A DNA stretch of 58,642 nucleotides from UHGV virus genome UHGV-0101169. The stretch is one strand, 5' to 3'. The position numbers and the translations under genes are program-made. This stretch comes from a virus. Position 1 is the stretch's first letter. The number at the start of each line of letters is the position of its first letter. This document shows positions 69-57,735 of the stretch, one piece after another. Below the pieces are notes generated by a model. It ran no database searches. It was not told the origin of the DNA and saw only the letters and a program-made list of their open reading frames with translations.

Positions 69-141
69 TCGGAACACCTGGAATCGAACCAAGGCACATG
101 GCTTAAAAGGCCACCGCTCTAACCGGCTGAACTATGTTCCG
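69..141 (-). tRNA. tRNA-Lys (anticodon TTT)
   Basis: Reverse-complement folds as a cloverleaf. Acceptor CGGAACA/TGTTCCG, U8, D-arm GTTC/GAGC, anticodon loop CTTTTAA, T-arm CTTGG-TTCGATT-CCAGG, discriminator A. No encoded CCA. Confidence 0.8.
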
Positions 142-439
142 TTTTTGATGCGGTGCCGATGTTAGGCAGCGTATATCACGATATAAGCTTTGCGCAAAGC
201 CATTATCTATATACCCAGCTCTCAACATCAGCATTGTCAATCTCTCTGAGACGGTCCGCATACGCTCAGTTCAGTTGGGAGCTACCCAACAGTATATCCT
301 TTATAAACCACGCTTTTTGTACTTCCAGGATATAATCTGTGAGTCCCGGACTAGCTCATATCACCGGCATGTCTTTTCTCTACTCACAGACAAGTTATTC
401 ACAGCATCAACATGAGCTTGTTGTACCGCACTATGGAAA

Positions 440-529
440 TGGAGAAGAGAGGAATTGAACCTCCAATGTTTACCGCAAGGGAACTGATTTACAGTCAGCC
501 GCAACACTTCCAATCGTTGCCGCTTCTCC
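440..529 (-). tRNA. tRNA-Tyr (anticodon GTA), class II with long variable arm
   Basis: Acceptor GGAGAAG/CTTCTCC. Anticodon stem-loop GCTGA-CTGTAAA-TCAGT is identical to the Bacillus tRNA-Tyr loop. T-loop GGTTCAATTCC and a long variable region. Positions 8-9 are atypical (CG), so possibly degenerate. Confidence 0.6.
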
Positions 530-806
530 AAACTGCATATGCCCCGTGAAAGCATTCTAGGTGATATGCAAGCACCTGACGGCCTTGTACGTGACCGCCG
601 AACGGATTTTAACGTCTTTACTGACCTTAACCTTATTGCGAGGAGAAGGATTTTACTGCCTATAACAGCCGTGTTGGCGCACAGGTTGATTTTCACAAAT
701 CCCACCGGACCTTGTGACGGTCCTTTAATCAGCTTTCCGCTAGTGGGTCAGGGAGGATACCTATATGAAAACACATACAGATATTGGGGCCCTTGCCATA
801 CCCCAG

Positions 807-879
807 CTAGGCTACCGGGATTCGAACCCGGGCATCCAGGAGTCAAAGTCCTGTGCCTTAACCGCTTGGCTATAGCCCA
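807..879 (-). tRNA. tRNA-Gln (anticodon TTG)
   Basis: Reverse-complement TGGGCTATAGCCAAGCGGTTAAGGCACAGGACTTTGACTCCTG...GGTTCGAATCCCGG closely resembles B. subtilis tRNA-Gln. U1-A72, discriminator G. Confidence 0.8.
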
Positions 880-3290: not shown

Positions 3291-3797
3291 CGAGTTGTGC
3301 GCCCTTCTCACGGCTCCAGGGCAACCCTACAAGACTCAGCTATATTGTACATAAAGCATACACCAGATTTTTTTATCTGTCAAGCATATACACTATGTCA
3401 TTTTTACAGATACCCCAGACCCTTATATATAATATATATTAATAATAATTATCGTTGATTATATTAAAAATAAAATATATAAAAAAATTAATATAATAAT
3501 TAAATTCGCCAAAGGGATTAAAAGAGATAAAAGGATATAGAATAATAATAGGGGGTATGGGGGAAAGAAGAAGGGAAAAGGGAAGAAGAGAAATTAAGGG
3601 AAAGGACACATTTTTACACGCATTGTCTACCCGCTGATCTGCTCACCTTGCCCGGCCGCCCGGGTCCGGTCCGGTTGCGATCTTTGTAGCCCTGGAAAAC
3701 CTAGGATTTGCGCCGGTTTCCGGGATTTATGAAAGTTGCCCGGCGCAGCTCCTGAAAATGTCATCAAAGCGTAAAAATAGACGGTATGAACACAGGG

Positions 3798-3940
3798 TGA
3801 ACCAGAAAGCGAACTAACACATGAACCACCAGACGAACTAGCAAAAACCCAGTAAATACAAGGTTTTTAGAGCATATGAGAACAGCAGGCGAACCAACTA
3901 ACGAACCAGTAAACGGACACCCAGACGAACCAACAAGACA
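3798..3940. repeat. iteron cluster R: at least four ~22-bp units TGAACCA-N5-6-CGAACTA(R)C
   Basis: Units tgaaccagaaagcgaactaac, tgaaccaccagacgaactagc, cgaaccaactaacgaaccag and gacgaaccaacaagacac. An inverted homologous cluster lies at 35388-35469. Confidence 0.6.
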
Positions 3941-3941
3941 C

Positions 3942-3969
3942 AAAAAAGGGGCCATATTCGACCCCTTTT
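3942..3969. terminator. bidirectional intrinsic terminator (A6-GGGG..loop..CCCC-T4)
   Basis: aaaaaaGGGGccatattcgaCCCCtttt. In minus sense the hairpin is followed by U6, directly downstream of the 3999..4154 gene. Confidence 0.5.
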
Positions 3970-3998
3970 CATGTGGGACGGTTGCCCGTCCCGGTGGT

Positions 3999-4154
3999 TT
4001 AGTCCTCTAACGTGCTTTGCAGGTTGTCCAGAATTTTCTGAATCCGCTCATCTTTCTTTTCGGTGTCCTGCTCTTCCTTGGCTTCTTTTAACCCGTCAAT
4101 CAGGAATCGAATAAAACCGTTAAACTGCTTGTCTGTCATTCCCATGTCTTGCAT
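3999..4154 (-). CDS. small hypothetical protein (51 aa), expressed from operator-containing promoter PL
   Basis: Not in the track. Sequence MQDMGMTDKQFNGFIRFLIDGLKEAKEEQDTEKKDERIQKILDNLQSTLED. SD AGAGAGG. Confidence 0.45.
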   Translation of the reverse strand: MQDMGMTDKQFNGFIRFLIDGLKEAKEEQDTEKKDERIQKILDNLQSTLED

Positions 4155-4216
4155 CTTTTACCTCTCTTTCTGGCTCTCGCCTATTGCCATTCGGTTACTA
4201 CCTCTTGACAGTTATT

Positions 4217-4245
4217 ATTATATACTATTATTAGTATAATATCAA
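4217..4245 (-). promoter_or_regulatory. consensus sigma-A promoter (TTGATA-17-TATAAT) with the 18-bp palindromic operator TATACTAnnnnTAGTATA in its spacer
   Basis: Minus-sense TTGATAttatactaataatagtaTATAAT. The palindrome spans 4221-4238. An identical 18-mer lies at 4569-4586. Confidence 0.6.
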
Positions 4246-4249
4246 TAGG

Positions 4250-4477
4250 TTAATAAAATTTTATTTTTTCGTCATCTGTTGGGATAACCTCGATAATATC
4301 ACCAGGTTGCATTTTTAACATGATACAGATTTTGTTTAGCGTATCTAATGTAATGCTTTTTCCTGCTTTTATGTTCTGCATCGTTTGCCGTGGTAACAGA
4401 TTGTCACGCTGCAATTTTGTTTGATTGTATCCCCTTTCTTTCAATTCTTTAAACACATCAATTTTATAATTTATCAT
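4250..4477 (-). CDS. XRE/Cro-CI family HTH transcriptional regulator (HTH_26-like), candidate repressor
   Basis: Sequence MINYKIDVFKELKERGYNQTKLQ...IKAGKSITLDTLNKICIMLKMQPGDIIE is a classic HTH_26 pattern. SD AAGGAGG. It sits between two outward-facing operator-bearing promoters. Confidence 0.7.
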   Translation of the reverse strand: MINYKIDVFKELKERGYNQTKLQRDNLLPRQTMQNIKAGKSITLDTLNKICIMLKMQPGDIIEVIPTDDEKIKFY

Positions 4478-4561
4478 GGCGTTACCTCCTTATATATAAA
4501 GATAGCATTTTATACCTTAAAAGTCAAATTTTGTTTATACTAAAAATAGTGTATTTATATA

Positions 4562-4590
4562 TTGACATTATACTATTATTAGTATATAAT
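4562..4590 (+). promoter_or_regulatory. consensus sigma-A promoter (TTGACA-17-TATAAT) with the same 18-bp palindromic operator in its spacer
   Basis: TTGACAttatactattattagtaTATAAT. Operator at 4569-4586. Drives the plus-strand operon beginning at 4640. Confidence 0.65.
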
Positions 4591-4639
4591 ACAACCATAA
4601 GGAACGGAAAACAGCAAACAAAAAAAGGAGATAGAAAAC

Positions 4640-5020
4640 ATGAAAAAAATCAAAATTGAAAACGGAAAAATCTATTCAGAGTCTTTCGGAAAAACGAACG
4701 TATTCGAGATTGTCGGAAGAATCCCGGTAAGTTATCAGATCTGGAACATCGGCGAAAACATGGGAACACATGACTACATTCCATTATGTCAAGACCTGCA
4801 CCCAGAAGATAAAGACGATTACAGCATTAACCCGGCAACACTTAAAGCTATAAGAGTAACCCCGGAAGAATGGGAGAAGCTGAACAAAGCAGCAAATTAT
4901 GGAGTTAATAACCTCCAGACAGCAGCCAAGGCGTTAAAGAGTAAACGTCGCGGATACATGAGCGACAAGAAAAGAGCGCTTGCAGAACTCACAATTGACA
5001 TTTTTATGAAAATATCATAG
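4640..5020 (+). CDS. hypothetical early protein (126 aa)
   Basis: ORF with SD AAAGGAGA. First gene downstream of promoter PR. Confidence 0.6.
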   Translation: MKKIKIENGKIYSESFGKTNVFEIVGRIPVSYQIWNIGENMGTHDYIPLCQDLHPEDKDDYSINPATLKAIRVTPEEWEKLNKAANYGVNNLQTAAKALKSKRRGYMSDKKRALAELTIDIFMKIS

Positions 5021-5101
5021 TCGAAACCGCCGCCCGGCGGTCTGTAGGAACTGCCCCACCTGCACTGATGAGACAGGGCAAAACGAAAGGAGAATAAAAC
5101 C

Positions 5102-5377
5102 ATGACAAAGAACGAAATGCTGAAAGAACTTGATAGACTGGAGAAAGAAAAAGGCGTTGACCTGGACGGAATCGGCCAGAACAGCAATAAAAGCACTATC
5201 CAGAACGCTATAAACTGCCTGTTATGCCCAGATGATCTGTTAGAAAAGTATTTGACCGTTTTAACGCTCAAATACCCAAATACAGGCGCAAAAATCTCAG
5301 AAAATGGAGACTTTAAAAAGCACCGTTTCAATCGGTTATATGTTTTCAATACCGCCAGAATGATTTTAGCAGATTAA
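5102..5377 (+). CDS. hypothetical early protein (91 aa)
   Basis: ORF with SD AAAGGAGAA. GC-rich stem-loops flank it. Confidence 0.55.
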   Translation: MTKNEMLKELDRLEKEKGVDLDGIGQNSNKSTIQNAINCLLCPDDLLEKYLTVLTLKYPNTGAKISENGDFKKHRFNRLYVFNTARMILAD

Positions 5378-5441
5378 GCCGAAACGCCCGTTAGGGCGTC
5401 CGGATCGGGTGCCGCCGGTTCGCTGATGATGGCAGGCAGAA

Positions 5442-5729
5442 ATGAATAACACTATGAAAAAAAGATATAGAAACGAAAACGGACAGCTTACAGTGAGCCT
5501 TGACCAGATTAAAAAGGAAACAGCCGCAGAAGCTGCCAAATATTACCACGTAGGAGGGATTTACCTTAATTCCGAAGACTCCCGTGAATATGTCATGATC
5601 GAAGCCGGGATCCTGGCACACTTTCAGAGTTTTGACGGGTATAACTTATTTATCCCAGCTGACAGCCTGGGCACATTCCTTCCGGATGTAGCCACGGAGG
5701 GCGCGGAACTGGTAGAAACTGAATACTAA
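5442..5729 (+). CDS. hypothetical early protein (95 aa)
   Basis: Plus-strand ORF in the same operon. Codon usage is consistent with its neighbours. Confidence 0.55.
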   Translation: MNNTMKKRYRNENGQLTVSLDQIKKETAAEAAKYYHVGGIYLNSEDSREYVMIEAGILAHFQSFDGYNLFIPADSLGTFLPDVATEGAELVETEY

Positions 5730-5817
5730 GCCGCCGCAGAGGATGCAAGCCCGGCCCGATACCGGGCGGCGGTGTTTATCTCCCGGCTCCCAGGGTAAAA
5801 GGGAAGAAAGAAAACAT

Positions 5818-6183
5818 ATGAAAAAATTTGAACTGTTTATGTGCTGTCAGGGTAACGGACTGGCTGTATATAACAAAGCTGTTTCAGAAAACGGCGGTTA
5901 TAAGCAGATCGCACATATTGCTAATTGCGGAAAAATTACTTGGTACGTAAATCCGGCGGCATATATTCCCGGATCCGACCTGTTAAGGATTGAACACACT
6001 GCAGACACAGCACGCGCAAACTGGGAAAAATGGCTTGACAATATGCCGGAATTTGAACGCTTATACAGGCTTTACAATATGGTTCCTATTGATGTGTATT
6101 TATATGTCAGCGGTTTAGACCTGGAAACCTGGCAGAAAATAGAATATCTGAAAAATGTAGTTTATCAGATATCAACGTTTTAA
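5818..6183 (+). CDS. hypothetical early protein (121 aa, MKKFELF start)
   Basis: The track ORF begins inside a GC-rich hairpin. The ATG at 5818 lies after AAGGGAAGAAAG. Confidence 0.5.
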   Translation: MKKFELFMCCQGNGLAVYNKAVSENGGYKQIAHIANCGKITWYVNPAAYIPGSDLLRIEHTADTARANWEKWLDNMPEFERLYRLYNMVPIDVYLYVSGLDLETWQKIEYLKNVVYQISTF

Positions 6184-6195
6184 GGAGGGCGCACC

Positions 6196-6276
6196 ATGTT
6201 AGATTTTTTACTTGCAATGTGTATATTTTTAGGCGGCTATATGTGCCGCGTAGCTGCTGAGGATATAGAAGAATAA
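6196..6276 (+). CDS. 26-aa hydrophobic micropeptide MLDFLLAMCIFLGGYMCRVAAEDIEE
   Basis: Strong SD AAGGAGG 7 nt upstream. Immediately followed by the SD of the next gene. Confidence 0.3.
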   Translation: MLDFLLAMCIFLGGYMCRVAAEDIEE

Positions 6277-6292
6277 TAAGGAGGTTCACACA

Positions 6293-6589
6293 ATGAGAAA
6301 ATACGATTTTGACAAAATGGGCAGCCTGTGGGCAGATCAGGCCCGCGAGATTACAGAAAAAGGCGAGTTTGTCGCCCATTCCGGCAATTGGGATTTATGG
6401 AGCTATTCCGGCACTGTTTATAGTATCCCGGTTAAAGGCTCCGGCTGCGGTGCTTCCGCTTGGTGTGCCCTGTCCAATCTGCGGCGGCATCTGTACCACC
6501 TGCGGAACGTCTGCAGCTATGCGGATCTAATCCCGGCATATTGGGAAGATGTCAACCGGGCTTTCCTGAAGTCTTACGGCATCGCTTAA
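6293..6589 (+). CDS. hypothetical early protein (98 aa)
   Basis: SD AAGGAGG. Last gene of the plus operon. Confidence 0.6.
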   Translation: MRKYDFDKMGSLWADQAREITEKGEFVAHSGNWDLWSYSGTVYSIPVKGSGCGASAWCALSNLRRHLYHLRNVCSYADLIPAYWEDVNRAFLKSYGIA

Positions 6590-7190
6590 AATCATTGTCT
6601 GCTATCCGGATCCAGTCCGGCGAGGGTTCGCGACCTGTAGCAGGCGTTTCCTCTGTTGTACCTTGCCACGCCCGGCAAACGTGGAAACCATACCGGAACA
6701 GAGATAGCAAAGCGGCTAGGATGTCAAGAAAGCGAAGGCAGCCGCAAAACTTCGCAACGATTTTATAGCAGCCCCAAGAGCATATACAGCAAATAAACGG
6801 CCTTACAGCCGTTCCGAGAGCCGCGAGCGGTAAATAACAGCGGCGATCCTATAAGCCACGGGGCAGGACGCGGGCGGAAGAAGGCCACACTATACAAAGC
6901 AACCAGAAAACCATAGCAAAACAGAAAGAAAGTGATAAAAATGTTTACAGCTGACATTATAAGCCAGAAAACAAGGGCGGTGTATATTGCCTCCCCAGTA
7001 TCTATGATCTTGTTAATTCTTCAATACATTTGTACGGCGGGTCTTGCCTCTGCTCACACGCTTCTTTTGCTTGCGCTGCCTGTATTCAGTCTTTATGATT
7101 GTTATGTTTCCGCGCTTTTCTTCCGTTCTAATCTTGACGGCCTCCGGGATATAGGCAGACGTTATAAGCCGGTGCTTGCTCCCCGATCTA

Positions 7191-7880
7191 CTACCCATTT
7201 ATCCACACCCCCGCATCATTTGAAACGGTTTGTCCACCACTACGCCTCCGGATCTGCTGCCCGTATGACTCCAGGTAGACCACCGGCGCAAGGTCCCGGG
7301 GTAAATTCTGAAGCTCAGGCCCCACAACTAGCACTTGATCTGGATGTAACCGGCGAATCATTTCCCGGTATCCGATCTCAAAGCAGTGTTGCCCGTCATC
7401 CCAAAAGCAGCCGGTCGTACTTACCGCCACTGTTCCGCCCTGGCTCAGTCCATCAAAACAAAAACTAAAGCTGTCTGGGCTGCCCCATCCAACCGAAGGA
7501 ATCACTTCAAAACCGTTGGCATGGAGCCACCAGCTAAGCGCCCGGCTTCTGTAGACTTGCCAAATTTTCATAGCTAGCGGCATACCGTCATAAAATGAAA
7601 AATCCGGTGCGCAAACATATCTGAAATTTTCCAAAATTCCGAAATATTTCTCTGGATTATTCCATAATCGCTCAAACCTGTGATCATCAATAAAAAAATG
7701 GCATACAGAATTTCTGGGATTTAATTCTCTTTGCGCCAAGTTAAAAGGCACCGCTTTAACTCCGGTCAAATCTGCGTTGACCGCCGAAAGCTTTGGAAAA
7801 CCATATTTCCCGTCTAATTCTGCGCCATACAAATAACGCTCACGTATCACATCATTAATCGTATTGATTTCTTGATACAT
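7191..7880 (-). CDS. DUF4417-like protein (229 aa)
   Basis: FIDDHRFERLWNNP...CAPDFSFYDGMP...IWQVYRSRALSWW...VIPSVGWGSPDSFSFCFDG resembles the DUF4417 consensus. SD AAAGGAGAT precedes the ATG at 7880. Confidence 0.5.
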   Translation of the reverse strand: MYQEINTINDVIRERYLYGAELDGKYGFPKLSAVNADLTGVKAVPFNLAQRELNPRNSVCHFFIDDHRFERLWNNPEKYFGILENFRYVCAPDFSFYDGMPLAMKIWQVYRSRALSWWLHANGFEVIPSVGWGSPDSFSFCFDGLSQGGTVAVSTTGCFWDDGQHCFEIGYREMIRRLHPDQVLVVGPELQNLPRDLAPVVYLESYGQQIRRRSGGQTVSNDAGVWING

Positions 7881-7971: not shown

Positions 7972-8310
7972 TCAATTTCCTGTATTCAGCATACCATTAT
8001 TCTGTGAATTAAGCAACATTAAATTGTCTAGCAAATACACCAGGTCCGTCCCATACAGGCTAATCCAGTCTGCCATACATTCTTCTTGTTCAATAGGCAT
8101 ATGGATTGAGTATGAAAAGCAGAACACATGGCAGAGTTCATGTGCCAAAACTTTGCGCAGAAATGCCCCTTTAAGCCGTTTATTTAGGTAAATGGTTCTG
8201 TTGTTCCAATCGGTTACTCCAACGGTTTCTGAGCCGTCTGAGCGCATCAGAAAGGCACTTCCACTGGGCACTCTACTTATAGTCCATTGTATCCCGTTGA
8301 TTTGAAACAT
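7972..8310 (-). CDS. small HExxH zinc-metallopeptidase-like protein (ImmA/SprT-like)
   Basis: LAHELCHVF motif in a 112-aa protein. Confidence 0.45.
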   Translation of the reverse strand: MFQINGIQWTISRVPSGSAFLMRSDGSETVGVTDWNNRTIYLNKRLKGAFLRKVLAHELCHVFCFSYSIHMPIEQEECMADWISLYGTDLVYLLDNLMLLNSQNNGMLNTGN

Positions 8311-9017: not shown

Positions 9018-9440
9018 TCACGCTTCTCTGGTAACTACAAGGTTAGCGTTAGCCACTTCAATAGCCTGTGTGCTGGTATTTTCAACCGCAATATTCGCAC
9101 AGCAGCCTGCCGGAACATCAATATAGATTCCGGCGGACACGTTGTTATACTGTGATACTGCTGCCGGAGTGGAGCGCATCTGAGATGAAAGAACCGGTTC
9201 TCCACTGATTGCGATTGCCAGAGAAATTTCACCTGCTGTTCCACCTGTCGGGACGGCGATATTTGCGGAAAAGTTTACAAAGTATCTTGCTCTGCACTGA
9301 TTGGTCAACCCACGAAGCGTGATAATGCCGGATCCTTCCCGGTGTTTAATGCAATTCCCGCCTTTAACAGCGGTGCTTGTAAAGACTACGTTCCCATTCT
9401 GCGCTACTTCCTGAGCAGCTACAGCCACAAATTCAGCCAT
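9018..9440 (-). CDS. BclA-C/C1q-like (TNF-fold) domain protein
   Basis: FTSTAVKGGN...GSGIITL...RYFVNFSANIAVPTGGTAGEISLAIAISG pattern. SD GGAGGT precedes the ATG at 9440. Confidence 0.35.
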   Translation of the reverse strand: MAEFVAVAAQEVAQNGNVVFTSTAVKGGNCIKHREGSGIITLRGLTNQCRARYFVNFSANIAVPTGGTAGEISLAIAISGEPVLSSQMRSTPAAVSQYNNVSAGIYIDVPAGCCANIAVENTSTQAIEVANANLVVTREA

Positions 9441-9567
9441 AATATTTACCTCCATAAATGATAAGGGCAGACTGTTAAGCCTGCCCTGTGTAATTCTGCT
9501 ATGCAGACATAACCTGTTTGGTTAAGTTACGATTATTCCGTTGTAACCGTATGTGATTCCATACGGT

Positions 9568-11357: not shown

Positions 11358-11588
11358 CTATTTTATGGGGAATTGGTTTTTAAATTCAGCAAATGCTTTA
11401 TCAAAATCAATTCCCTTTTCTTTTGCAATGTTCCTTCCAAATTTCTCTATGCCTTGTATATCTCCTCTTTGAGCCATATTCATTATATTTCTTACCATTG
11501 GATTGCTCATGATCTGGTTGTTTCCCATAATATTTTGCATAAACTGCTGTGGATTTTGAAACATCTGCATTAAATTCATCGGATTCAT
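11358..11588 (-). CDS. hypothetical M/N/Q-rich small protein
   Basis: ORF only. Confidence 0.45.
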   Translation of the reverse strand: MNPMNLMQMFQNPQQFMQNIMGNNQIMSNPMVRNIMNMAQRGDIQGIEKFGRNIAKEKGIDFDKAFAEFKNQFPIK

Positions 11589-12103
11589 TCAGCATCCTCC
11601 TTTTTAGTCATAGAACTACGGCTTTTAGCCATAGGTTTAGTCATAGACTGCTCTAATCGGTCAATCTTTTCGGAAAGTTCATTGAAATGTCTTTCAAATA
11701 CCTCTGTGACGTTCTGTGCGAGTCCAGAAGCCATTTTATCTGTGTCAGCCTGTACTTCTTTGGTCGTATTTGGTTGAACCGGTTTATAGGTCAATGTGCG
11801 TATTGTTCCATCAGCACACCAACTTTTAACATAGATTTCTGATAAGTCCTGTTTTGGGAAGAAAGCTGCTGATCCATCCATAGGCACACAATCAGCTGTC
11901 ACGTTTTCAATTGCCTGCACGACCATTCCGTTAAGTCCCCTTGGCATCTGTTGCACCGGCGGATTTTGTTGCTGAACCTGTTGCACTGGAACTTCCGGTT
12001 GCTGAAATCTCGGCTGCATATACGGAAGATAAGAATTTACACCGTATTGCTGCTGTCCATATGGTATCTGAGGATACATATTATTCTGATACGGAACTGG
12101 CAT
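11585..12103 (-). CDS. hypothetical protein with Q/P-rich N-terminus
   Basis: ORF only. Overlaps the downstream gene's start. Confidence 0.5.
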   Translation of the reverse strand: MPVPYQNNMYPQIPYGQQQYGVNSYLPYMQPRFQQPEVPVQQVQQQNPPVQQMPRGLNGMVVQAIENVTADCVPMDGSAAFFPKQDLSEIYVKSWCADGTIRTLTYKPVQPNTTKEVQADTDKMASGLAQNVTEVFERHFNELSEKIDRLEQSMTKPMAKSRSSMTKKEDAE

Positions 12104-12342
12104 CTTCTTTTACCTCCTCTAAAACTTCCTCTATTGCATGAATTACGGCAGACTGAGTTTGCAAATCAAGTCTCTGCAATTCTTCTCTGGCAAAAATCTT
12201 TTCTAAAACTTCATCAGAAAACATACCTCATCCTCCTTCCACTTAAATTTTCGCATAAAAAAAGACGGTTAAACCGTCAAATTATCGCAAATTATCAGTA
12301 TATTATTAGTAAAACAGAATAAAAACCTATCCATTTATGAAT

Positions 12343-12386
12343 TTCAACTTTCTATATTTCGGTCCAGCGATACTTAGAAAGTTGAA
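12343..12386. promoter_or_regulatory. 12-bp perfect inverted repeat TTCAACTTTCTA-N20-TAGAAAGTTGAA abutting the recombinase stop; candidate attP core or terminator
   Basis: Perfect arms lie 6 bp from the serine recombinase stop codon. No adjacent U-tract. Confidence 0.35.
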
Positions 12387-12391
12387 GTATA

Positions 12392-13741
12392 TTACAAAGT
12401 AACAAAACGAATCGTAATTTCGTCCTTGTCAACCACTATATCTTCAACGCATTGCTTCAATATTTTGTTTTTTTCTTTCAATGTCAAGCTGTCCCAAACA
12501 TCTGACATATGCCTGATTTCTGCTATTTTTGTTGGATCACACCTCTTTTCTGTTTTTGCATCATCGAGTTTCTTTTTTAATTTCTTGATATTTTCTTCCT
12601 CTGCTTTTATCACATCAAGTAGATTTTCGCTAGGGTTATCTGCATATAAGCCGTACAACCGCCTAACTTTTGTATCAGATTTTTTTAACGATTCCACTAA
12701 AATTTCAGTGCTATCTTGATGGCTTTCAGTATACTCATTAATATTAATGGCAAAATTTTTAAAACATTCTTCCACTTCTGCTTCGATTTTATAAGCATCT
12801 ACTGGATGATTTTTGCAACAATCTGACTTTCGCATATATGCTTTTGAACTTTGATAATGTGAATAGCACACCAACTTCATTGTTTTTGCAGTCCATTTCT
12901 GGTATCTCATTCTTGCGCCGCAGTAACCACAATGGCACAAACCTGTCAGTAAATGTCCGCTACTCAAATAAGCATTGGTATGTCTTTTTTTCATTTCGTC
13001 TTGGACTTTCCAAAATACCTTTTCATCAATAATTGGTTCATGTCTGCCTTTATATACCTTGCCTTTATATTCAATTAAACCAATATTTGATTTTCGTTTT
13101 AAAATCCCCTTAACTATTGGTTCACCTTTAAATCCAAGAATCTTTGAAATGTTTTCGCAAGAAAATCCATTTAGATACAGATCATATACTTTTCGCACCA
13201 CAGACGCTTGTTGCTCATTAATGTGTAATATGCCATCATTGCGATCATAATAATATCCCCATGGGGTTCTGCCACCACCCATCCAATATCCTTTTTTTAC
13301 GCGTTCTAACATCCCGGCGGACATTCTCATTCGAATAACTTCACGTTCATACTGGTTCATGGCCGCATTCATTGTCAACATCATCCTGTCCATTGGATTT
13401 TCTGTCCGTAGTTCTTCAGTCATAGAAATAACCTTAACTCCATATCCAGGAAGAATTTTGTAAAACAAGTTCAGCGTATCAATAACATCTCGGCTCATGC
13501 GATCAAGCTTGTAGATGTACACTGTATCAATGATTCCGCTTTTTGCGTGGTTCAAAAGTTCTTGAATCTCTGGTCTGTCAAGTTTGCTTCCACTATACCC
13601 CCCATCTATGTACCATTTGTCAATAGTAATACCATGTTTTTCACAGTAATCCATTATTTTTTGTTTCTGCATATCCAAGCCGTACTTTTCAGTCTGTGTT
13701 TCTGTTGATACTCTCAAATATGCCACCTGCAATTTGCTCAT
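12392..13741 (-). CDS. large serine recombinase (integrase)
   Basis: N-terminal resolvase catalytic domain (YLRVSTETQ...), recombinase domain and Cys-rich zinc ribbon (CHCGYCGARM). 449 aa. Confidence 0.85.
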   Translation of the reverse strand: MSKLQVAYLRVSTETQTEKYGLDMQKQKIMDYCEKHGITIDKWYIDGGYSGSKLDRPEIQELLNHAKSGIIDTVYIYKLDRMSRDVIDTLNLFYKILPGYGVKVISMTEELRTENPMDRMMLTMNAAMNQYEREVIRMRMSAGMLERVKKGYWMGGGRTPWGYYYDRNDGILHINEQQASVVRKVYDLYLNGFSCENISKILGFKGEPIVKGILKRKSNIGLIEYKGKVYKGRHEPIIDEKVFWKVQDEMKKRHTNAYLSSGHLLTGLCHCGYCGARMRYQKWTAKTMKLVCYSHYQSSKAYMRKSDCCKNHPVDAYKIEAEVEECFKNFAININEYTESHQDSTEILVESLKKSDTKVRRLYGLYADNPSENLLDVIKAEEENIKKLKKKLDDAKTEKRCDPTKIAEIRHMSDVWDSLTLKEKNKILKQCVEDIVVDKDEITIRFVTL

Positions 13742-13798
13742 AGGCCATCCTCCTAAAAGAAAATGGCTAGGTTTTTATTCTAGCCATAGTCTACAACA

Positions 13799-29471: not shown

Positions 29472-29834
29472 ATGAAAGATCGTATAAAAGAAGTAAGAAA
29501 ATCTACCGGAATGACTCAAGTTGAGTTTGGTGAAAAACTTGGAGTAAAAGGAAACACTGTTACAAATTATGAAACTGGTCAAAGAACCCCTACAGACGCA
29601 GTTATACGTTCTATTTGCAGAGAATTTCATGTAAACGAAGAATGGCTCAGATATGGAACCGGAGAAATGTTTCCACCGAAAACCAAAGACGAATTGATTT
29701 CTGATATGATAGGAGAAATTCAAAGGTCTGGTGAAGACAATTTTAAGCACAGGCTTGTATCGGCGCTTTCAAAGCTAAGTAAGTCTGATTGGGAAGCATT
29801 AGAAAGATTAATTGATTCTATTGCAAAAAAGTAA
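29472..29834 (+). CDS. XRE-family HTH transcriptional regulator (CI/Cro-like)
   Basis: TGMTQVEFGEKLGVKGNTVTNYETGQRTP is a canonical HTH_3. Confidence 0.75.
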   Translation: MKDRIKEVRKSTGMTQVEFGEKLGVKGNTVTNYETGQRTPTDAVIRSICREFHVNEEWLRYGTGEMFPPKTKDELISDMIGEIQRSGEDNFKHRLVSALSKLSKSDWEALERLIDSIAKK

Positions 29835-29877: not shown

Positions 29878-30141
29878 TTATCCTATAAGTTTTTTTACAT
29901 ACGCATAAATAGTTTTTAGCCAATGTAAATTTTCACACTGAGTAATTAATGTTATAATTTTTTCCTTATAATATTCTTTCTCCTCCACTAAAAGTCCCTC
30001 CAATTCATCCAATTCACACGTCCTTGTAGCGATAATCGTATTATAGAACATATGTTCGATTATGTCAAGATAGCATCGGGGACACCGATACAAAATCAAT
30101 GTCCCCAAACCAGAAGTTGATTGCCCATTTTCATTGGACAT
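29878..30141 (-). CDS. hypothetical protein (87 aa)
   Basis: ORF only. Confidence 0.4.
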   Translation of the reverse strand: MSNENGQSTSGLGTLILYRCPRCYLDIIEHMFYNTIIATRTCELDELEGLLVEEKEYYKEKIITLITQCENLHWLKTIYAYVKKLIG

Positions 30142-53893: not shown

Positions 53894-54337
53894 TCATTTT
53901 GACTCATTGTAGGACACTTTGCCACCTAAATACTTATTCCCGTACATATTTTCAAAAACAGCCAATGCATTGTAATAAATCCTTTTGACTTGTTTAAGCG
54001 AAATATCACCTCTAAGTCGAATGGTTTTTAAATCCTTATCCAAAATAAACTTCTGACACAGAACATCATACATATTCGTATCTGGAATGCTTTCAATTTC
54101 TTGAACAATCTCATATCGCTTATCAATAATATTGTCAACTTCACGTTCCATATCTACAATTTTGGAAACATATGAACTAATTTTGTCAGGATTCTTCGAG
54201 GTCTGTATTCTATCACCATTACTCTGAACAGCCGATGTGCTGTAGATAATAGACCTTAGATTTTCAACTTCCTTTAATTTATTTTCAATCATTCGATTAT
54301 ATCTTACTACTAAAGATAAATACTCTCTCGTTTCCAT
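53894..54337 (-). CDS. hypothetical protein (147 aa)
   Basis: ORF only. Abuts the terminase stop. Confidence 0.45.
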   Translation of the reverse strand: METREYLSLVVRYNRMIENKLKEVENLRSIIYSTSAVQSNGDRIQTSKNPDKISSYVSKIVDMEREVDNIIDKRYEIVQEIESIPDTNMYDVLCQKFILDKDLKTIRLRGDISLKQVKRIYYNALAVFENMYGNKYLGGKVSYNESK

Positions 54338-57177
54338 TATCCAAACCTCCTAAACGGATTTATTACTGCTTCAACCTTTGCTGTCCTGTTCCCTTGCGTA
54401 ATCCTAAGCGCAAAGTTTGAGAATACATCTGGAACATCGTCTAATTGCTTCTTTCCAGATACAGAATATTGCTTAAGCAACGTCATCATCACACCATATG
54501 GTTCTTTCGGTGTATACTTTGACGCATCTTTGAATATCACATGTTGTAATATCCAGTTTGAGCACTGGAAGATACGTGCTTCTTTGTTAGTTTCAGTAGG
54601 GACATCAGTGATATTACAAATCCATCCCTTTGCTTCTACTCGCTTATTGACTTCCATTGCTACACGGTCACCACCAGCATTTCTCTCAAATTCGCACTCA
54701 ATAACCTCGTTATTGACAAGCATATTTGCCGCATTTTCATACTGCATTTCATAATCTGCTGTATTGTCGCACACGGCATCCACACAATAATAATCTTCAC
54801 CAAATTTTTGGAATACTGGCATAACAAAATAATCAGTTCCCTTACCCTTGGTATCGCACTGAGCTGTGACAATCTCAGGTACACCATGTGGCAGATTCAA
54901 ATATCGCCTGATTTTATCTTCTGGGAATAACAGGCCCTCACGTTCAATAGGCTCCTGCTTATACAGACATTTGTATGAAATATCATCCATCAATAATTGT
55001 TGGTCTGCAAAGAACTCCTCGTCAAAGCCTGAGAATTCATAATCAAAATTGCTCTTTCCAGTAACCGGATCAACATCAGGAACAGCAATTACCTTTACCC
55101 TCGGATTACCTTCATACATTTTTTGGATACGCCCTATGACATCCTGGACACTCCATCTGGTTGCAATGTGTATTTCCTTACAATTCTTACCATCAGTATC
55201 TTTGATTTTTCTTTGGCGTGCATCTACGGAATACTTACTCCACAACTTTTCAAGTATAGCCGGATTCAATGCTTCCTCGATACCGCCAATCATATCATCA
55301 ACCAGCAGAAACTTAGAAGCACGGACTTTACCCGCATTTTTGCTTCCTACTGATGTGCACTGCACAGATGGGAACGGCTTATATTTTCCTACGTTGAACT
55401 GTTCTGTCTTTGCATTTGTACTTGTCACATACAAATCAGGGAAAATCTCATTCCATGCATATTCGTCTGAATTAGTAACTATATCATATATACCGTCATA
55501 GTACATTCTGGTAATATCACCGCTATGGGAATAAAACAAATTGAAGTCTTTCGGATACCAGCCAATTACTGCAGCATTGAAGAATTTTTCAATGGTAGTA
55601 TTGTGAGTAATAATGTAATCATCTGTAATGTACAAATGGCAAGGATTATCAATCATAATACACTGGCACTCTTCTTCTCCTACATACTCAATATTTTTTA
55701 TATAACGTTTCCAAAGCTTGCGTTTTGGATTATATATTTTAGCTTTTCTCTCTAACCAAAATGGATTATCATGATTTGCACTAAACAAAATTGTAATCCT
55801 ATAGTTATCAAGGCACGAAACACTATTGCCGTCCTTGTCTCTGTACCCAGATTTCCGTTTTGTTAAGCTCGCATATCCTCCCAAAGAACGTACTAATTCT
55901 GTTACATTTTCCGCAAGTTTTTGAGAGGCTGTTGAATATTCTATTCCCTTGTATTCTGCGTATCCGTCTGTATCTAACAATCCACGTAATAGCCACAATC
56001 TTTGTTCATGACTTGAATATAGATATTCTTCTGGTATAAATTTTGTAGCAGATTTTGTACCAAGAAGGCCTAATCTATTTAGTTCCTCTTTTAATAGGTT
56101 GGGTTTTTTTGCAGCATCTTTAGAGCGCAAATAATAATCTTTATCACTTCCACGTTTTAGGACAAACTCATATCCGCCAATGAGTGAATTGATTTTTTCA
56201 ACTATTTCTTTATCTTTTTTTGTAAAGCAAATTGTTTTTGTACTTAATCCACCATCTCCCAATAAGCATCCAAGAAGATACGGGTGTATATAAAACTTTT
56301 TTTCTTCAAAGGCTTTAATTTCGGGAACATAGTCTATAGAATAGTTTTTCCTTCCGTCTTTTTCAATAATAAAATCTTTAAGCATATCTTCCGTTTTTAT
56401 TATTCTTGTCCTATGATTTCCCGTCCTTGTTTCAAATTGTCTATCACACCGATTTTGTACTTCCCATAAGTGATTATCTGAAACTTCTGTAAAGCCTCCG
56501 TCATTCATTGTAATTCTGTATATTCGGCGTTTCCCTTGTGGATATACTCCAATAACAGACGCTTTTTCTCCGTCTCCGGCCACAACCTTTGTTCCAACCT
56601 TTACATCACGCATTTCAATGAATCCGCTTGGTGTTAGGACTTTAGACGACATCTTTCCAGCTTTCCCGGCACCAGGAATAAGGCTAATGCACAAAATGTC
56701 GTACTTGTCATCAATCATGCCCTGTAAAGCATCCACCAAACCGATTTTAAGCAGCTGTTTGCGCCTAGGCATATAAAACCGCTCTTTCGGTTCTCTTTTG
56801 TGCTCTATATACCTGAAAAAACTGTCAATCACTTTATGTTGAGCTTCTAAAAGCAAAACCGAATAAAAACAGTCTATCAGCTCCAATATGGTTTTATTGG
56901 TTGTCTTATACTCAAATGCATATTTTTCCAATTCCCATATAGCACCACCTGTCTGTTCTAAACAATAACGCTCCGTCAGCTCCTTTGAGCGCTTTGCAAG
57001 TTGTAATCCATAATGAATATCATTTTCACCATTAATAGCCACTGCGCAAGCCTTTGCGTATGCCTGAACAACCCGCCAATCGACACCGTTAGCCTGTATG
57101 TAATTTTCATATTCCCTGATTGTTTGCTTCAGATTTTCGGAAGCCAAAAGAAAAGCACCTCCACTTTCAAAAAGCAA
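54337..57177 (-). CDS. terL: terminase large subunit interrupted by an intein; TTG start (an alternative TTG 30 nt downstream has SD GGAGGTG)
   Basis: P-loop region LIPGAGK..., Walker B KFLLVDDM, C-terminal nuclease-like region. 946 aa because of a ~350-aa intein. Confidence 0.8.
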   Translation of the reverse strand: MLFESGGAFLLASENLKQTIREYENYIQANGVDWRVVQAYAKACAVAINGENDIHYGLQLAKRSKELTERYCLEQTGGAIWELEKYAFEYKTTNKTILELIDCFYSVLLLEAQHKVIDSFFRYIEHKREPKERFYMPRRKQLLKIGLVDALQGMIDDKYDILCISLIPGAGKAGKMSSKVLTPSGFIEMRDVKVGTKVVAGDGEKASVIGVYPQGKRRIYRITMNDGGFTEVSDNHLWEVQNRCDRQFETRTGNHRTRIIKTEDMLKDFIIEKDGRKNYSIDYVPEIKAFEEKKFYIHPYLLGCLLGDGGLSTKTICFTKKDKEIVEKINSLIGGYEFVLKRGSDKDYYLRSKDAAKKPNLLKEELNRLGLLGTKSATKFIPEEYLYSSHEQRLWLLRGLLDTDGYAEYKGIEYSTASQKLAENVTELVRSLGGYASLTKRKSGYRDKDGNSVSCLDNYRITILFSANHDNPFWLERKAKIYNPKRKLWKRYIKNIEYVGEEECQCIMIDNPCHLYITDDYIITHNTTIEKFFNAAVIGWYPKDFNLFYSHSGDITRMYYDGIYDIVTNSDEYAWNEIFPDLYVTSTNAKTEQFNVGKYKPFPSVQCTSVGSKNAGKVRASKFLLVDDMIGGIEEALNPAILEKLWSKYSVDARQRKIKDTDGKNCKEIHIATRWSVQDVIGRIQKMYEGNPRVKVIAVPDVDPVTGKSNFDYEFSGFDEEFFADQQLLMDDISYKCLYKQEPIEREGLLFPEDKIRRYLNLPHGVPEIVTAQCDTKGKGTDYFVMPVFQKFGEDYYCVDAVCDNTADYEMQYENAANMLVNNEVIECEFERNAGGDRVAMEVNKRVEAKGWICNITDVPTETNKEARIFQCSNWILQHVIFKDASKYTPKEPYGVMMTLLKQYSVSGKKQLDDVPDVFSNFALRITQGNRTAKVEAVINPFRRFG
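55600..56649 (-). mobile_element. intein with LAGLIDADG homing endonuclease inserted in the terminase P-loop
   Basis: Hint block A (SSKVLTPSGF...VGTKVVAGDG) aligns to canonical inteins. Block B SDNHLW. Two LAGLIDADG motifs (LLGCLLGDGGL; LWLLRGLLDTDGYA). C-terminal ITHN followed by Thr. Confidence 0.75.
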
Positions 57178-57246: not shown

Positions 57247-57627
57247 TTATGAATTTGTTGGCACTGCTTCTTCACGCACCGAATTGAGAAGCTCGTTATA
57301 ATTGTCAATCACATATTCTGCTCTGATACGATAGTTCTTGATTCCATAAGCAGACGCAACACTGCTCTCGGTTTCGCACCCTTTACAGTCCCAGCTGTTA
57401 TCAAGTCCGATAAACACATCTGCTTCTGCCAGTTTTTCTAGTGACTTACCCAAATACCAGACACCAGCATTATTATTTTCAGGTGGATTATCTTCAATGT
57501 ATGTATCAATCAGCTCCAACGCCTCACCTTCACAAATTTCGGCAATTTTCTTCATCTTCTCGATACTTGTCTTAATTGCTTCCTCTGTTCTGTCTCTCAT
57601 TGGTACACTTACAAATAATTTTTTCAT
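57247..57627 (-). CDS. DUF4406 / nucleoside 2-deoxyribosyltransferase-like protein
   Basis: LFVSVPMRDRTEE...ADVFIGLDNSWDCKGCETESSVASAYGIK pattern. Strong SD GGAGGAAAATCATG. Confidence 0.45.
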   Translation of the reverse strand: MKKLFVSVPMRDRTEEAIKTSIEKMKKIAEICEGEALELIDTYIEDNPPENNNAGVWYLGKSLEKLAEADVFIGLDNSWDCKGCETESSVASAYGIKNYRIRAEYVIDNYNELLNSVREEAVPTNS

Positions 57628-57735
57628 GATTTTCCTCCATATTAATTGCCCGGCTGCCGTCGCGTCTACAGCATCTCTTTTGACCATATTGGTGCGTGGG
57701 TGCAACGAACTTTCCTACCTCGGGCAAACATGATT

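Follow-up and report, generated by a model that had tools for sequence, protein, structure and literature searches.

A conserved HTH_26 repressor with two operator-bearing promoters as a probable gate for accessory genes in temperate phages of Lachnospiraceae

The virus genome UHGV-0101169, a stretch of 58,642 nucleotides (nt) that was analyzed over its whole length and is referred to here as the window, carries near one end a gene for a small XRE-type repressor of 75 amino acids (aa) that belongs to the helix-turn-helix family HTH_26. The gene is flanked by two outward promoters, both of which contain the identical 18-base pair (bp) palindrome TATACTAnnnnTAGTATA in their 17-bp spacer. The same arrangement occurs in many related phages, where the palindromes vary together with the repressor and the genes behind the two promoters differ from one phage to the next. 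The module is probably a gate for accessory genes, several of which are separated by hammerhead ribozymes. Its regulatory elements are the following:

4250-4477, minus strand: XRE/HTH_26 repressor gene, 75 aa; Pfam HTH_26 (PF13443), E 4e-14, 53 bits against a cut-off of 22
4562-4590, plus strand: rightward promoter P_cargo, TTGACA (4562-4567), 17 nt, TATAAT (4585-4590); 12/12 consensus, sigma-70-type
4245-4217, minus strand: leftward promoter P_dn, TTGATA (4245-4240), 17 nt, TATAAT (4222-4217); 11/12 consensus
4569-4586: operator O1, TATACTATTATTAGTATA, a perfect palindrome within the P_cargo spacer
4221-4238: operator O_dn, TATACTAttatTAGTATA, a perfect 7-4-7 palindrome within the P_dn spacer, equal in sequence to O1
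4536-4553: third site, operator O2, TATACTAaaaaTAGTGTA, an imperfect copy with one mismatch
4527-4499, minus strand: P_xre, candidate promoter of the repressor itself, TTGACT-17-TATCTT with a TG extension; 9/12 consensus, weaker
3970-3943, minus strand: strong intrinsic terminator, a 12-pair stem followed by a T-run, closing the short leftward unit after a 51-aa gene

The positions of the repressor gene, the two outward promoters and their operators had been proposed in an earlier examination of the letters (the sequence-only reading), and all of them were confirmed against the sequence. P_cargo is one of only two sigma-70-type promoters with a 12/12 consensus in the whole 58.6 kb, and P_dn begins 4 nt past the stop codon of the repressor gene. 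The operators have the same register in both promoters, extending from the second nucleotide of the spacer into the first two bases of the -10 hexamer. The pattern TATACTANNNNTAGTATA, with up to two mismatches, has four matches in the window against 0.24 expected, and none of 100 shuffles reached this number. The two operators named by the sequence-only reading are indeed identical and exact, and a third, imperfect site, O2, had been overlooked. O2 lies midway between back-to-back -35 hexamers (8 bp from that of P_xre and 8 bp from that of P_cargo), 33 bp from O1 centre-to-centre, and is centred at about -53 of both back-to-back promoters, an AT-rich position resembling an UP element; it is probably a tuning site for the repressor's own and the divergent promoter. 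The weaker promoter that the repressor had been supposed to possess finds a candidate in P_xre, and the 51-aa protein that had been assigned to the leftward promoter is its only cargo gene in the window, followed by the terminator. The fourth match to the operator pattern, a weak one upstream of the integrase gene (13776-13793), falls within the hairpin of a terminator and was discarded as a chance occurrence; this match aside, the scan with up to two mismatches found the operator nowhere else in the genome.

The 75-aa protein scores above the curated profile cut-off for XRE/HTH_26 proteins (Cro/C1-type helix-turn-helix). Its AlphaFold2 (AF2) model, with a predicted local distance difference test (pLDDT) of 80, consists of a strand, five helices and a strand, which is the XRE fold, and the structures closest to it are VanU(G), CylR2 and the SaPI2 Stl N-terminal domain, with template modelling (TM) scores of about 0.6. 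Further matches include 434 Cro, lambda cI, C.BclI, C.AhdI, HipB and Xre-type antitoxins. The repressor is a helix-turn-helix protein of the CylR2/VanU-like kind and presumably acts as a dimer. The sequence searches gave 319 homologue clusters, the best 120 of which carry PF13443 under generic names only, and none of these 120 was named Aca by any source; likewise, judging by names, no Aca molecule occurred among the PDB sequence matches (E up to 1) or the top 50 fold matches. The NCBIfam search returned VanU at a sub-threshold score only (17 bits against a cut-off of 150), and the search of PDB sequences yielded no genuine relative, the poly-ubiquitin matches being spurious.

Relatives of the locus were taken from IMG/VR, where 80 loci with repressor homologues at 51-92% identity were found, from a genome search, in which 30 loci of Lachnospiraceae/Clostridia encode homologues, and from GenBank, which contributed the complete circular genome of Dulem virus 39. 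Comparison of positions 3300-7300 with GenBank phages by blastn gave no match, and tblastn against the same phages reached only uncultured ones, at 55% identity or less. The regulatory geometry was counted over 68 non-identical regulatory regions, drawn from some 80 contigs of related phages; its common layout, seen in Lachnospiraceae prophages as well, is a 7-4-7 palindrome in the spacers of both outward promoters. Equivalents of P_cargo match the consensus in at least 11 of 12 positions in 61/68 regions; those of P_dn do so in at least 10 of 12 positions in 59/68 and in all 12 in 31/68, and the O_dn palindrome is retained with no more than one arm mismatch in 55/68. The third site is conserved in place, lying 32-33 bp from O1 in 62 of the 68 regions and 6-9 bp from the -35 hexamer of P_xre in 51 of them, and it is never a perfect copy. 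A promoter of the P_xre type (TTGAC-N16-18-TAnnnT) was observed in 47 of 52 distinct upstream regions, in 31 of these with the TG extension; the repressor's own -10 box departs from consensus in every one of those regions, and the outward promoters are near consensus. Loci L052-L067 (loci of the comparison are given L numbers) form a clade with a natural variant of the circuit, in which the central imperfect site alone remains and the divergent cargo is one gene of 76-83 aa. DNA looping from O2 to O_dn was considered and set aside as unsupported, the distances being 306-379 bp without helical phasing.

The repressor is nearly invariant among these phages except at positions 30 and 33-34, which lie on the recognition helix. 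In several lineages a change in residues 29-33, with which this helix begins, is accompanied by a change in the operator half-site:

PRQTM: half-site TATACTA
PAQTA: half-site TATTCTA / TACTCTA
(P/S)KQTM: half-site TA(T/C)CCTA
SEATM / SEGTM: half-site ACACTA..TAGTGT, the site abutting the -35 box and not in the spacer
SSRTA: half-site TAGCGC..GCGCTA

This covariation argues that the palindromes and the XRE protein are a genuine repressor-operator pair. An exact scan of IMG/VR with the 18-mer recovered no related phage, the operators of the relatives being different, and returned 47 unrelated AT-rich contigs by chance.

Genes were called with a codon-usage model trained on long open reading frames (ORFs) and grouped into families by blastp clustering. 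Five to six small genes had been expected behind the rightward promoter; the operon holds five ORFs and, in addition, two hammerhead ribozymes. The two units behind P_dn and P_cargo contain:

3999-4154, minus strand: acidic helical protein of 51 aa, sole cargo of the leftward promoter in the window; good coding score
4640-5020, plus strand: cargo gene 1 (p126), 126 aa; top coding score of the region
5019-5082, plus strand: type II hammerhead ribozyme HH1; Rfam RF02276, 36.3 bits, slightly short of the gathering score of 37
5102-5377, plus strand: cargo gene 2 (p91), 91 aa
5377-5441, plus strand: type II hammerhead ribozyme HH2; Rfam RF02276, 41.5 bits against the gathering score of 37
5442-5729, plus strand: cargo gene 3 (p95), 95 aa
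5818-6183, plus strand: cargo gene 4, 121 aa; its reading frame is open from 5743 onwards, and the public gene call is likewise 121 aa
6293-6589, plus strand: cargo gene 5, 98 aa

The cargo is hypervariable. In 81 loci, the 284 proteins of the divergent operons fell into 115 families and the 175 proteins of the downstream units into 77, with no family common to the two sides and with mosaic gene orders; the commonest of these 192 families is found in 16 loci, and each cargo gene of the window recurs in just 0-6 of 80. Cargo gene 1, which gave no family match in Pfam, PHROG or NCBIfam, has 765 homologues, every one of them annotated as hypothetical, and in 6 loci it is the first gene of the operon with a hammerhead following it. 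The 51-aa protein has no Pfam, PHROG or NCBIfam match; its homologues are the first gene after the repressor gene in about 10 of 99 loci, a frequency at which the idea of an obligatory co-regulator was abandoned. Even among contigs with an identical repressor, one is without p91 and another begins directly with p95. The flanks of the cargo are conserved, with a block encoding an M78-like protein, p214, p145 and p263 upstream and a gene of about 226 aa plus MazG downstream, and in 38 of 61 distinct related regions the downstream cargo is closed off by a hairpin with a T-run from the conserved gene that comes next. Beyond the end of the window's own operon, an interval of about 600 nt (6590-7190) is GC-rich with respect to its surroundings and without a convincing ORF, and is followed by a convergent DUF4417 gene. 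A minus-strand terminator (6814-6795) lies in this interval, no canonical terminator for the plus-strand operon was seen in it, and Rfam gave no match up to 6900.

Cargo proteins are small (median 82-86 aa, mostly 40-150 aa) and more acidic than those of other genes in these loci, and most of their families have no Pfam or PHROG match. Among those that could be annotated, ArdA is encoded by the first divergent gene in two loci (L071 and L073), and proteins of the AcrIC5 family (65.9 and 40.5 bits against the Pfam cut-off of 27) are encoded by the first gene after the P_dn-type promoter in L031, L033 and L072, 94-153 nt past the repressor gene, and by the third gene in L032. AcrIC5 orthologues in Firmicutes had been noted by Leon et al. 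(PMC7913775). Other annotated cargo comprises HicAB, ParE/RelE, a DUF4258 protein with an MqsA-like partner, GIY-YIG and HNH nucleases, resolvases/recombinases, an FtsK-like ATPase, an LPD29 domain and a fragment of an insertion sequence (IS).

Together the two hammerheads take up both intergenic gaps among the first three genes of the operon; HH2 occupies exactly that between genes 2 and 3, and HH1 starts on the gene 1 stop codon. As type II hammerheads, HH2 is above the Rfam threshold and HH1 marginally below it, and the class is borne out by the core and by covariation. Rfam-level matches were also found in three non-redundant related loci (L074, 64.4 bits; L012, 50.5; L018, 41.0), a fourth, in L019, being a duplicate of the L018 match. 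With a covariance model built from five of the Rfam-found hammerheads, HH1 scores 71.8 bits, with its core CUGAUGA...GAAA intact, and a search of 82 sequences detected 44 copies; a single one, which Dulem virus 39 carries in its downstream operon, is not on the strand of the divergent operon. Hammerheads occur in L012, L018, L074, L158 and about 30 other loci, and the model found none elsewhere in the window. Over 41 copies, 96.9% of the cells are paired and 12 of 14 pairs show compensatory changes, a level reached in none of 500 shuffles. Typically a copy overlaps the upstream gene at its stop codon, on which it begins, and leaves 11-31 nt between its own end and the following start codon.

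The copies fall into two sequence classes, each of which joins many unrelated gene families on both sides. One contig whose repressor is 100% identical to that of the window (L162) is without exactly one unit, consisting of one hammerhead and the 91-aa gene: its positions 9395-9459 correspond to 9037-9101 and 9396-9459 of contig L160 (window 5019-5441), and the junction lies inside the conserved 5' core common to the two ribozymes. This junction, together with near-identical ribozymes joining unrelated genes, suggests that recombination takes place at the ribozymes. In an earlier survey, type II hammerheads were found to flank non-constant genes or blocks in prophages, including those of Clostridium scindens, with ardA among the flanked genes (Perreault et al., 2011; PMC3088659). 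What is new is that the hammerheads are tied to a repressor-gated promoter and have a linker-like distribution. We offer tentatively, as a possibility well short of an even chance, that the divergent operon is a ribozyme-delimited cassette array in which the hammerheads both cut the polycistronic early transcript and serve as recombination linkers in the DNA. They would then cleave the early RNA into single-gene mRNAs, and the conserved linkers of 65-70 bp would permit homologous recombination between co-infecting phages or prophages, by which anti-defence genes could be swapped, deleted and reassorted behind one repressor-gated consensus promoter. In function such an array would resemble an integron, though one lacking an integrase. 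Should this reading be true, the hammerheads of bacteria and phages would gain a biological role.

The core of the sequence-only reading, in which one small XRE repressor controls both promoters, is as well supported as a sequence can make it, by the geometry in 68 regions and by the covariation of protein and operator. The sequence-only reading had overlooked the hammerheads, the turnover of the cargo and a separate cI-like lysogeny region at 29.4-29.8 kb; given this region, the module is read as an accessory-gene gate, and the genes behind its promoters in the window are non-conserved accessory ORFs. We regard it as probable that this gate is Aca-like and that the repressor permits a burst of anti-defence or other accessory functions upon entry of the genome, to end it thereafter. 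The repressor would be made from its own moderate promoter, and its dimer, bound to the spacer palindrome, would occlude RNA polymerase at both near-consensus promoters; the weak central O2 would tune the repressor's own promoter and tighten the repression of the divergent one. Upon entry into a repressor-free cell both strong promoters would fire at once, until accumulating repressor silenced them and kept them off in the lysogen. Aca repressors of anti-CRISPR operons are known to follow such a logic. The units so regulated would be the divergent operon at 4640-6589, with its five genes and two hammerheads, and the 51-aa gene with its terminator. Both are interchangeable cargo, and the corresponding slots of the relatives hold ArdA, AcrIC5 homologues, toxin-antitoxin pairs and homing nucleases. 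The module may thus be described as a stand-alone HTH_26 repressor flanked by two operator-bearing consensus promoters, with a third, tuning site and with diversified specificities, which would gate a ribozyme-punctuated cargo. The suggestion made in the sequence-only reading, that the operon genes are candidates for early, anti-defence or superinfection functions, gains indirect support from the relatives, with their hypervariable small genes, ArdA and AcrIC5; the window's own cargo lends it no such match.

Several points weigh against this interpretation or narrow it. Binding by the repressor, repression, its dimeric state, the timing, the role of O2 and the function of the window's cargo are all read from sequence, and the repressor and operator part deserves more confidence than either the timing or an anti-defence role for the cargo of the window itself. 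The six cargo proteins of the window match no known anti-defence family in Pfam, PHROG or NCBIfam, and the AF2 model of p126 (pLDDT 60.7) was too poor for a fold search. Recognizable anti-defence genes make up only 3 of about 192 cargo families, and the cargo thus comprises accessory genes in general, not anti-defence genes purely; toxin-antitoxin pairs, nucleases and recombinases are among the others. The repressor gene is not inside the operon it would control, unlike canonical aca genes, which are located within the repressed operon and usually at its end. In L052-L067 the spacer palindrome has been lost from the divergent promoter, although its hexamers are still near consensus. Finally, cooperativity between O1 and O2 is doubtful, as a protein of 75 aa leaves little room for a tetramerization surface.

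An alternative that we judge unlikely, while allowing it some weight, is that the repressor acts mainly as a silencer in the prophage state, keeping cargo of the moron or toxin-antitoxin type off until a signal, for example cleavage of the repressor by an M78-like peptidase, releases both promoters upon induction, in the manner of ImmR/ImmA. A candidate peptidase is encoded nearby:

7972-8310, minus strand: M78/IrrE/SprT-like metallopeptidase, 112 aa, with a HEXXH motif

This gene is 3.5 kb from the repressor gene and, in 39 of 80 loci, its equivalent lies just outside the cargo region; toxin-antitoxin pairs occur among the cargo, and the XRE module is situated about 8 kb from the prophage end. 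Nevertheless, the peptidase never adjoins the repressor, from which it is separated in the window by the inverted cargo operon, and half of the loci are without it. A C-terminal domain of the type cleaved by ImmA is missing from the 75-aa repressor, and the peptidase may serve instead a cI-like repressor encoded elsewhere in the genome, which lacks an S24 domain. Silencing in the prophage is, in any case, compatible with a burst at entry.

It is very unlikely that the module is a second immunity or lysis-lysogeny switch, with a Cro- or CI-like XRE protein and lytic or lysogenic flanking operons. A divergent promoter pair with operators and a site beside the regulator's -35 hexamer resembles lambda PRM/PR, and the protein has its fold in common with 434 Cro and lambda cI. 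Yet the regulated genes are unconserved (0-6 of 80 loci each), no replication, integration or lysis function was recognized among them, and the XRE operator occurs nowhere else in the genome. Moreover, the window has a separate region of this type at about 29.2-29.9 kb:

29472-29834, plus strand: cI-like HTH gene, RstR-like, 49.6 bits
29835-29875: terminator of the cI-like gene

This region has divergent promoters, between which its own repeat, ATTGACTTTGTGAGTTT, stands in two copies in the promoter region (29365 and 29419), and is placed between the tail/lysis genes and the early genes, adjoining the anti-repressor gene. Lysogeny switches are usually found in such a place. The XRE module is therefore very probably not the main lysis-lysogeny switch. 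The other 12/12 promoter of the window (30068-30040, minus strand) is inside an 87-aa ORF (29878-30141) and points at the 3' end of the cI-like gene.

We attach very little probability to the proposal that the protein is the autoregulatory antitoxin of a toxin-antitoxin pair or a controller (C protein) of restriction-modification, which would agree with its fold matches to C.BclI, C.AhdI, HipB and Xre-type antitoxins and with the toxin-antitoxin pairs in some downstream cargo sets. Against it, the repressor is conserved while every neighbour changes: the 192 families provide no constant partner gene on either side, and the window cargo contains no restriction-modification genes. That the sites are functionless palindromes arisen by chance in an AT-rich region (GC 0.36), of which the exact 18-mer does turn up by chance in 47 unrelated viral contigs, or the terminal inverted repeats of a small mobile element carrying the XRE gene, as the inverted repeat formed around it by the two 29-bp promoter/operator units could suggest, has a negligible probability, given that none of 100 shuffles reached the observed count, that the geometry has been kept and that, from lineage to lineage, sites and protein vary together, and that the unit, without a transposase, keeps a fixed genomic position between conserved phage genes.

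As a whole, the window represents a siphovirus-like temperate phage, almost all of whose genes are encoded by the minus strand. They include genes for the portal, the major head protein, an anti-repressor, RecT, a DnaD-like loader and a large serine integrase, along with three tRNAs, and an ORF of 1601 aa is taken to be the tape measure. The host group appears to be the Lachnospiraceae, which are gut bacteria, with relatives as prophages in Lachnospiraceae and other Clostridia. In a contig with an identical repressor, the phage genes adjoin a truncated sigma-factor gene that comes after SpoIIAA- and SpoIIAB-like genes. These host genes are in L161 (1-2400) and comprise a SpoIIAA-like (STAS) gene, a SpoIIAB-like (HATPase_c) gene and a truncated Sigma70_r2 gene of 87 aa; the junction corresponds to window positions of about 12104-12391, between ORF 11585-12103 and the integrase gene (12392-13741). 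The phage appears to integrate by means of its serine integrase in the gene of a sigma-F-like sporulation sigma factor.

Other features of the window are located away from the module. The tRNAs lie downstream of the MazG/DUF3310 block:

69-141, minus strand: tRNA Lys-UUU
439-530, minus strand: tRNA Tyr-GUA
806-879, minus strand: tRNA Gln-UUG

Two to five tRNAs are found in the same place in relatives, and in L160 packaging genes follow the MazG/DUF3310 block. A skipping-rope RNA (RF02924; 57645-57728, minus strand; 52.7 bits against the gathering score of 36.7) overlaps the 5' end of a 152-aa ORF (57247-57705), just upstream of a large ORF (54337-57177, minus strand) that encodes 946 aa as against 582-592 aa in close relatives. 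A near-identical 936-aa protein of L160 has a LAGLIDADG_3 match and a weak Terminase-T7_RNaseH-like one, and the 582-592-aa counterparts have the weak terminase match only, which suggests that an intein or a homing endonuclease may have been inserted in the terminase. A reverse-transcriptase gene (RVT_1) occurs downstream of the terminase region in a close relative (L161, 19344-20228).

The regulatory logic itself is not surprising; we see the value of the module in the anchor it provides for anti-defence discovery and in the setting it gives to the hammerheads. The repressor and its operator-bearing promoters are a conserved and easily spotted mark of two accessory-gene slots in a large group of temperate phages of Lachnospiraceae, and the slots of the 81 loci contain small proteins of about 190 families, almost none of which has an assigned function, the recognizable few (ArdA, AcrIC5) being counter-defence proteins. 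Such an anchor is a guilt-by-association handle of the type behind most known anti-CRISPRs, in a host group with almost no experimental phage biology. Prophage hammerheads, long unexplained, are here set in a defined, probably immediate-early and repressor-gated operon, so that their role becomes testable. In addition, the repressor/operator pairs have at least five specificities that are one to two residues and one to two bases apart, and could serve as orthogonal tight switches in Firmicutes.

Among known regulators, CylR2 is the repressor of the Enterococcus faecalis cytolysin and binds as a dimer to an inverted repeat in a promoter. CylR2 (1UTX) and VanU(G) (3TYR) resemble the XRE protein in size (about 66-75 aa) and in the strand/five-helix/strand fold (TM about 0.6), but they share only 21-25% identity with it and have different regulons, neither of them phage cargo. 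The right operator of lambda (PRM/PR, OR1-OR3) has in common with the module the back-to-back divergent promoters, with a strong site over the outward promoter and a weaker one by the regulator's -35 hexamer. Here, in contrast, that weaker site is near -53 and not -42, no site covers the regulator's own promoter, the protein has no oligomerization or cleavage domain, and it would control accessory genes while a cI-like region is found elsewhere. The timing proposed above has a parallel in the leading regions of conjugative plasmids, where zygotic induction produces a burst of anti-restriction genes that an element-encoded repressor of the ArdK/ArdR type then shuts off; the present case differs in being a phage and not a plasmid, with unrelated proteins and promoters. 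The hammerheads are of the same type as those previously described (PMC3088659), which are also type II and flank variable genes, including ardA, in prophages of C. scindens, one of the Lachnospiraceae, and of others. They differ in that they are under a defined operator-controlled consensus promoter and start on the upstream stop codon, and in that near-identical ribozymes join unrelated genes, with one deletion having its endpoints in two ribozymes.

The Aca proteins regulate neighbouring anti-defence operons (PMC13551039), and the nearest parallels to the module are Aca11/Aca13 of Streptococcus prophages and the control of several operons described for Aca1, Aca2 and Aca14 (PMC12282945; PMC13551039; PMC6765145). 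The XRE protein is set apart from them by its HTH_26 family, with no Aca-named PDB sequence or fold match, and by its gene, which has its own promoter and is not the distal gene of the operon repressed, the upstream operon being divergent and the downstream unit starting after the stop codon. The operator is central in the -35/-10 spacer, with a third, weak site between the -35 boxes, and the cargo is broader than anti-CRISPR and has hammerhead punctuation. In their general plan the two are alike, each consisting of a small DNA-binding protein of a mobile element and of inverted repeats within the strong promoters of operons whose counter-defence genes are small and variable. Relatives of the window, whose own cargo genes match no known acr, carry acr homologues of the AcrIC5 family adjoining the repressor. 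A precedent for the arrangement is Aca11, a single regulator that represses promoters on both sides of its own gene (PMC12282945).

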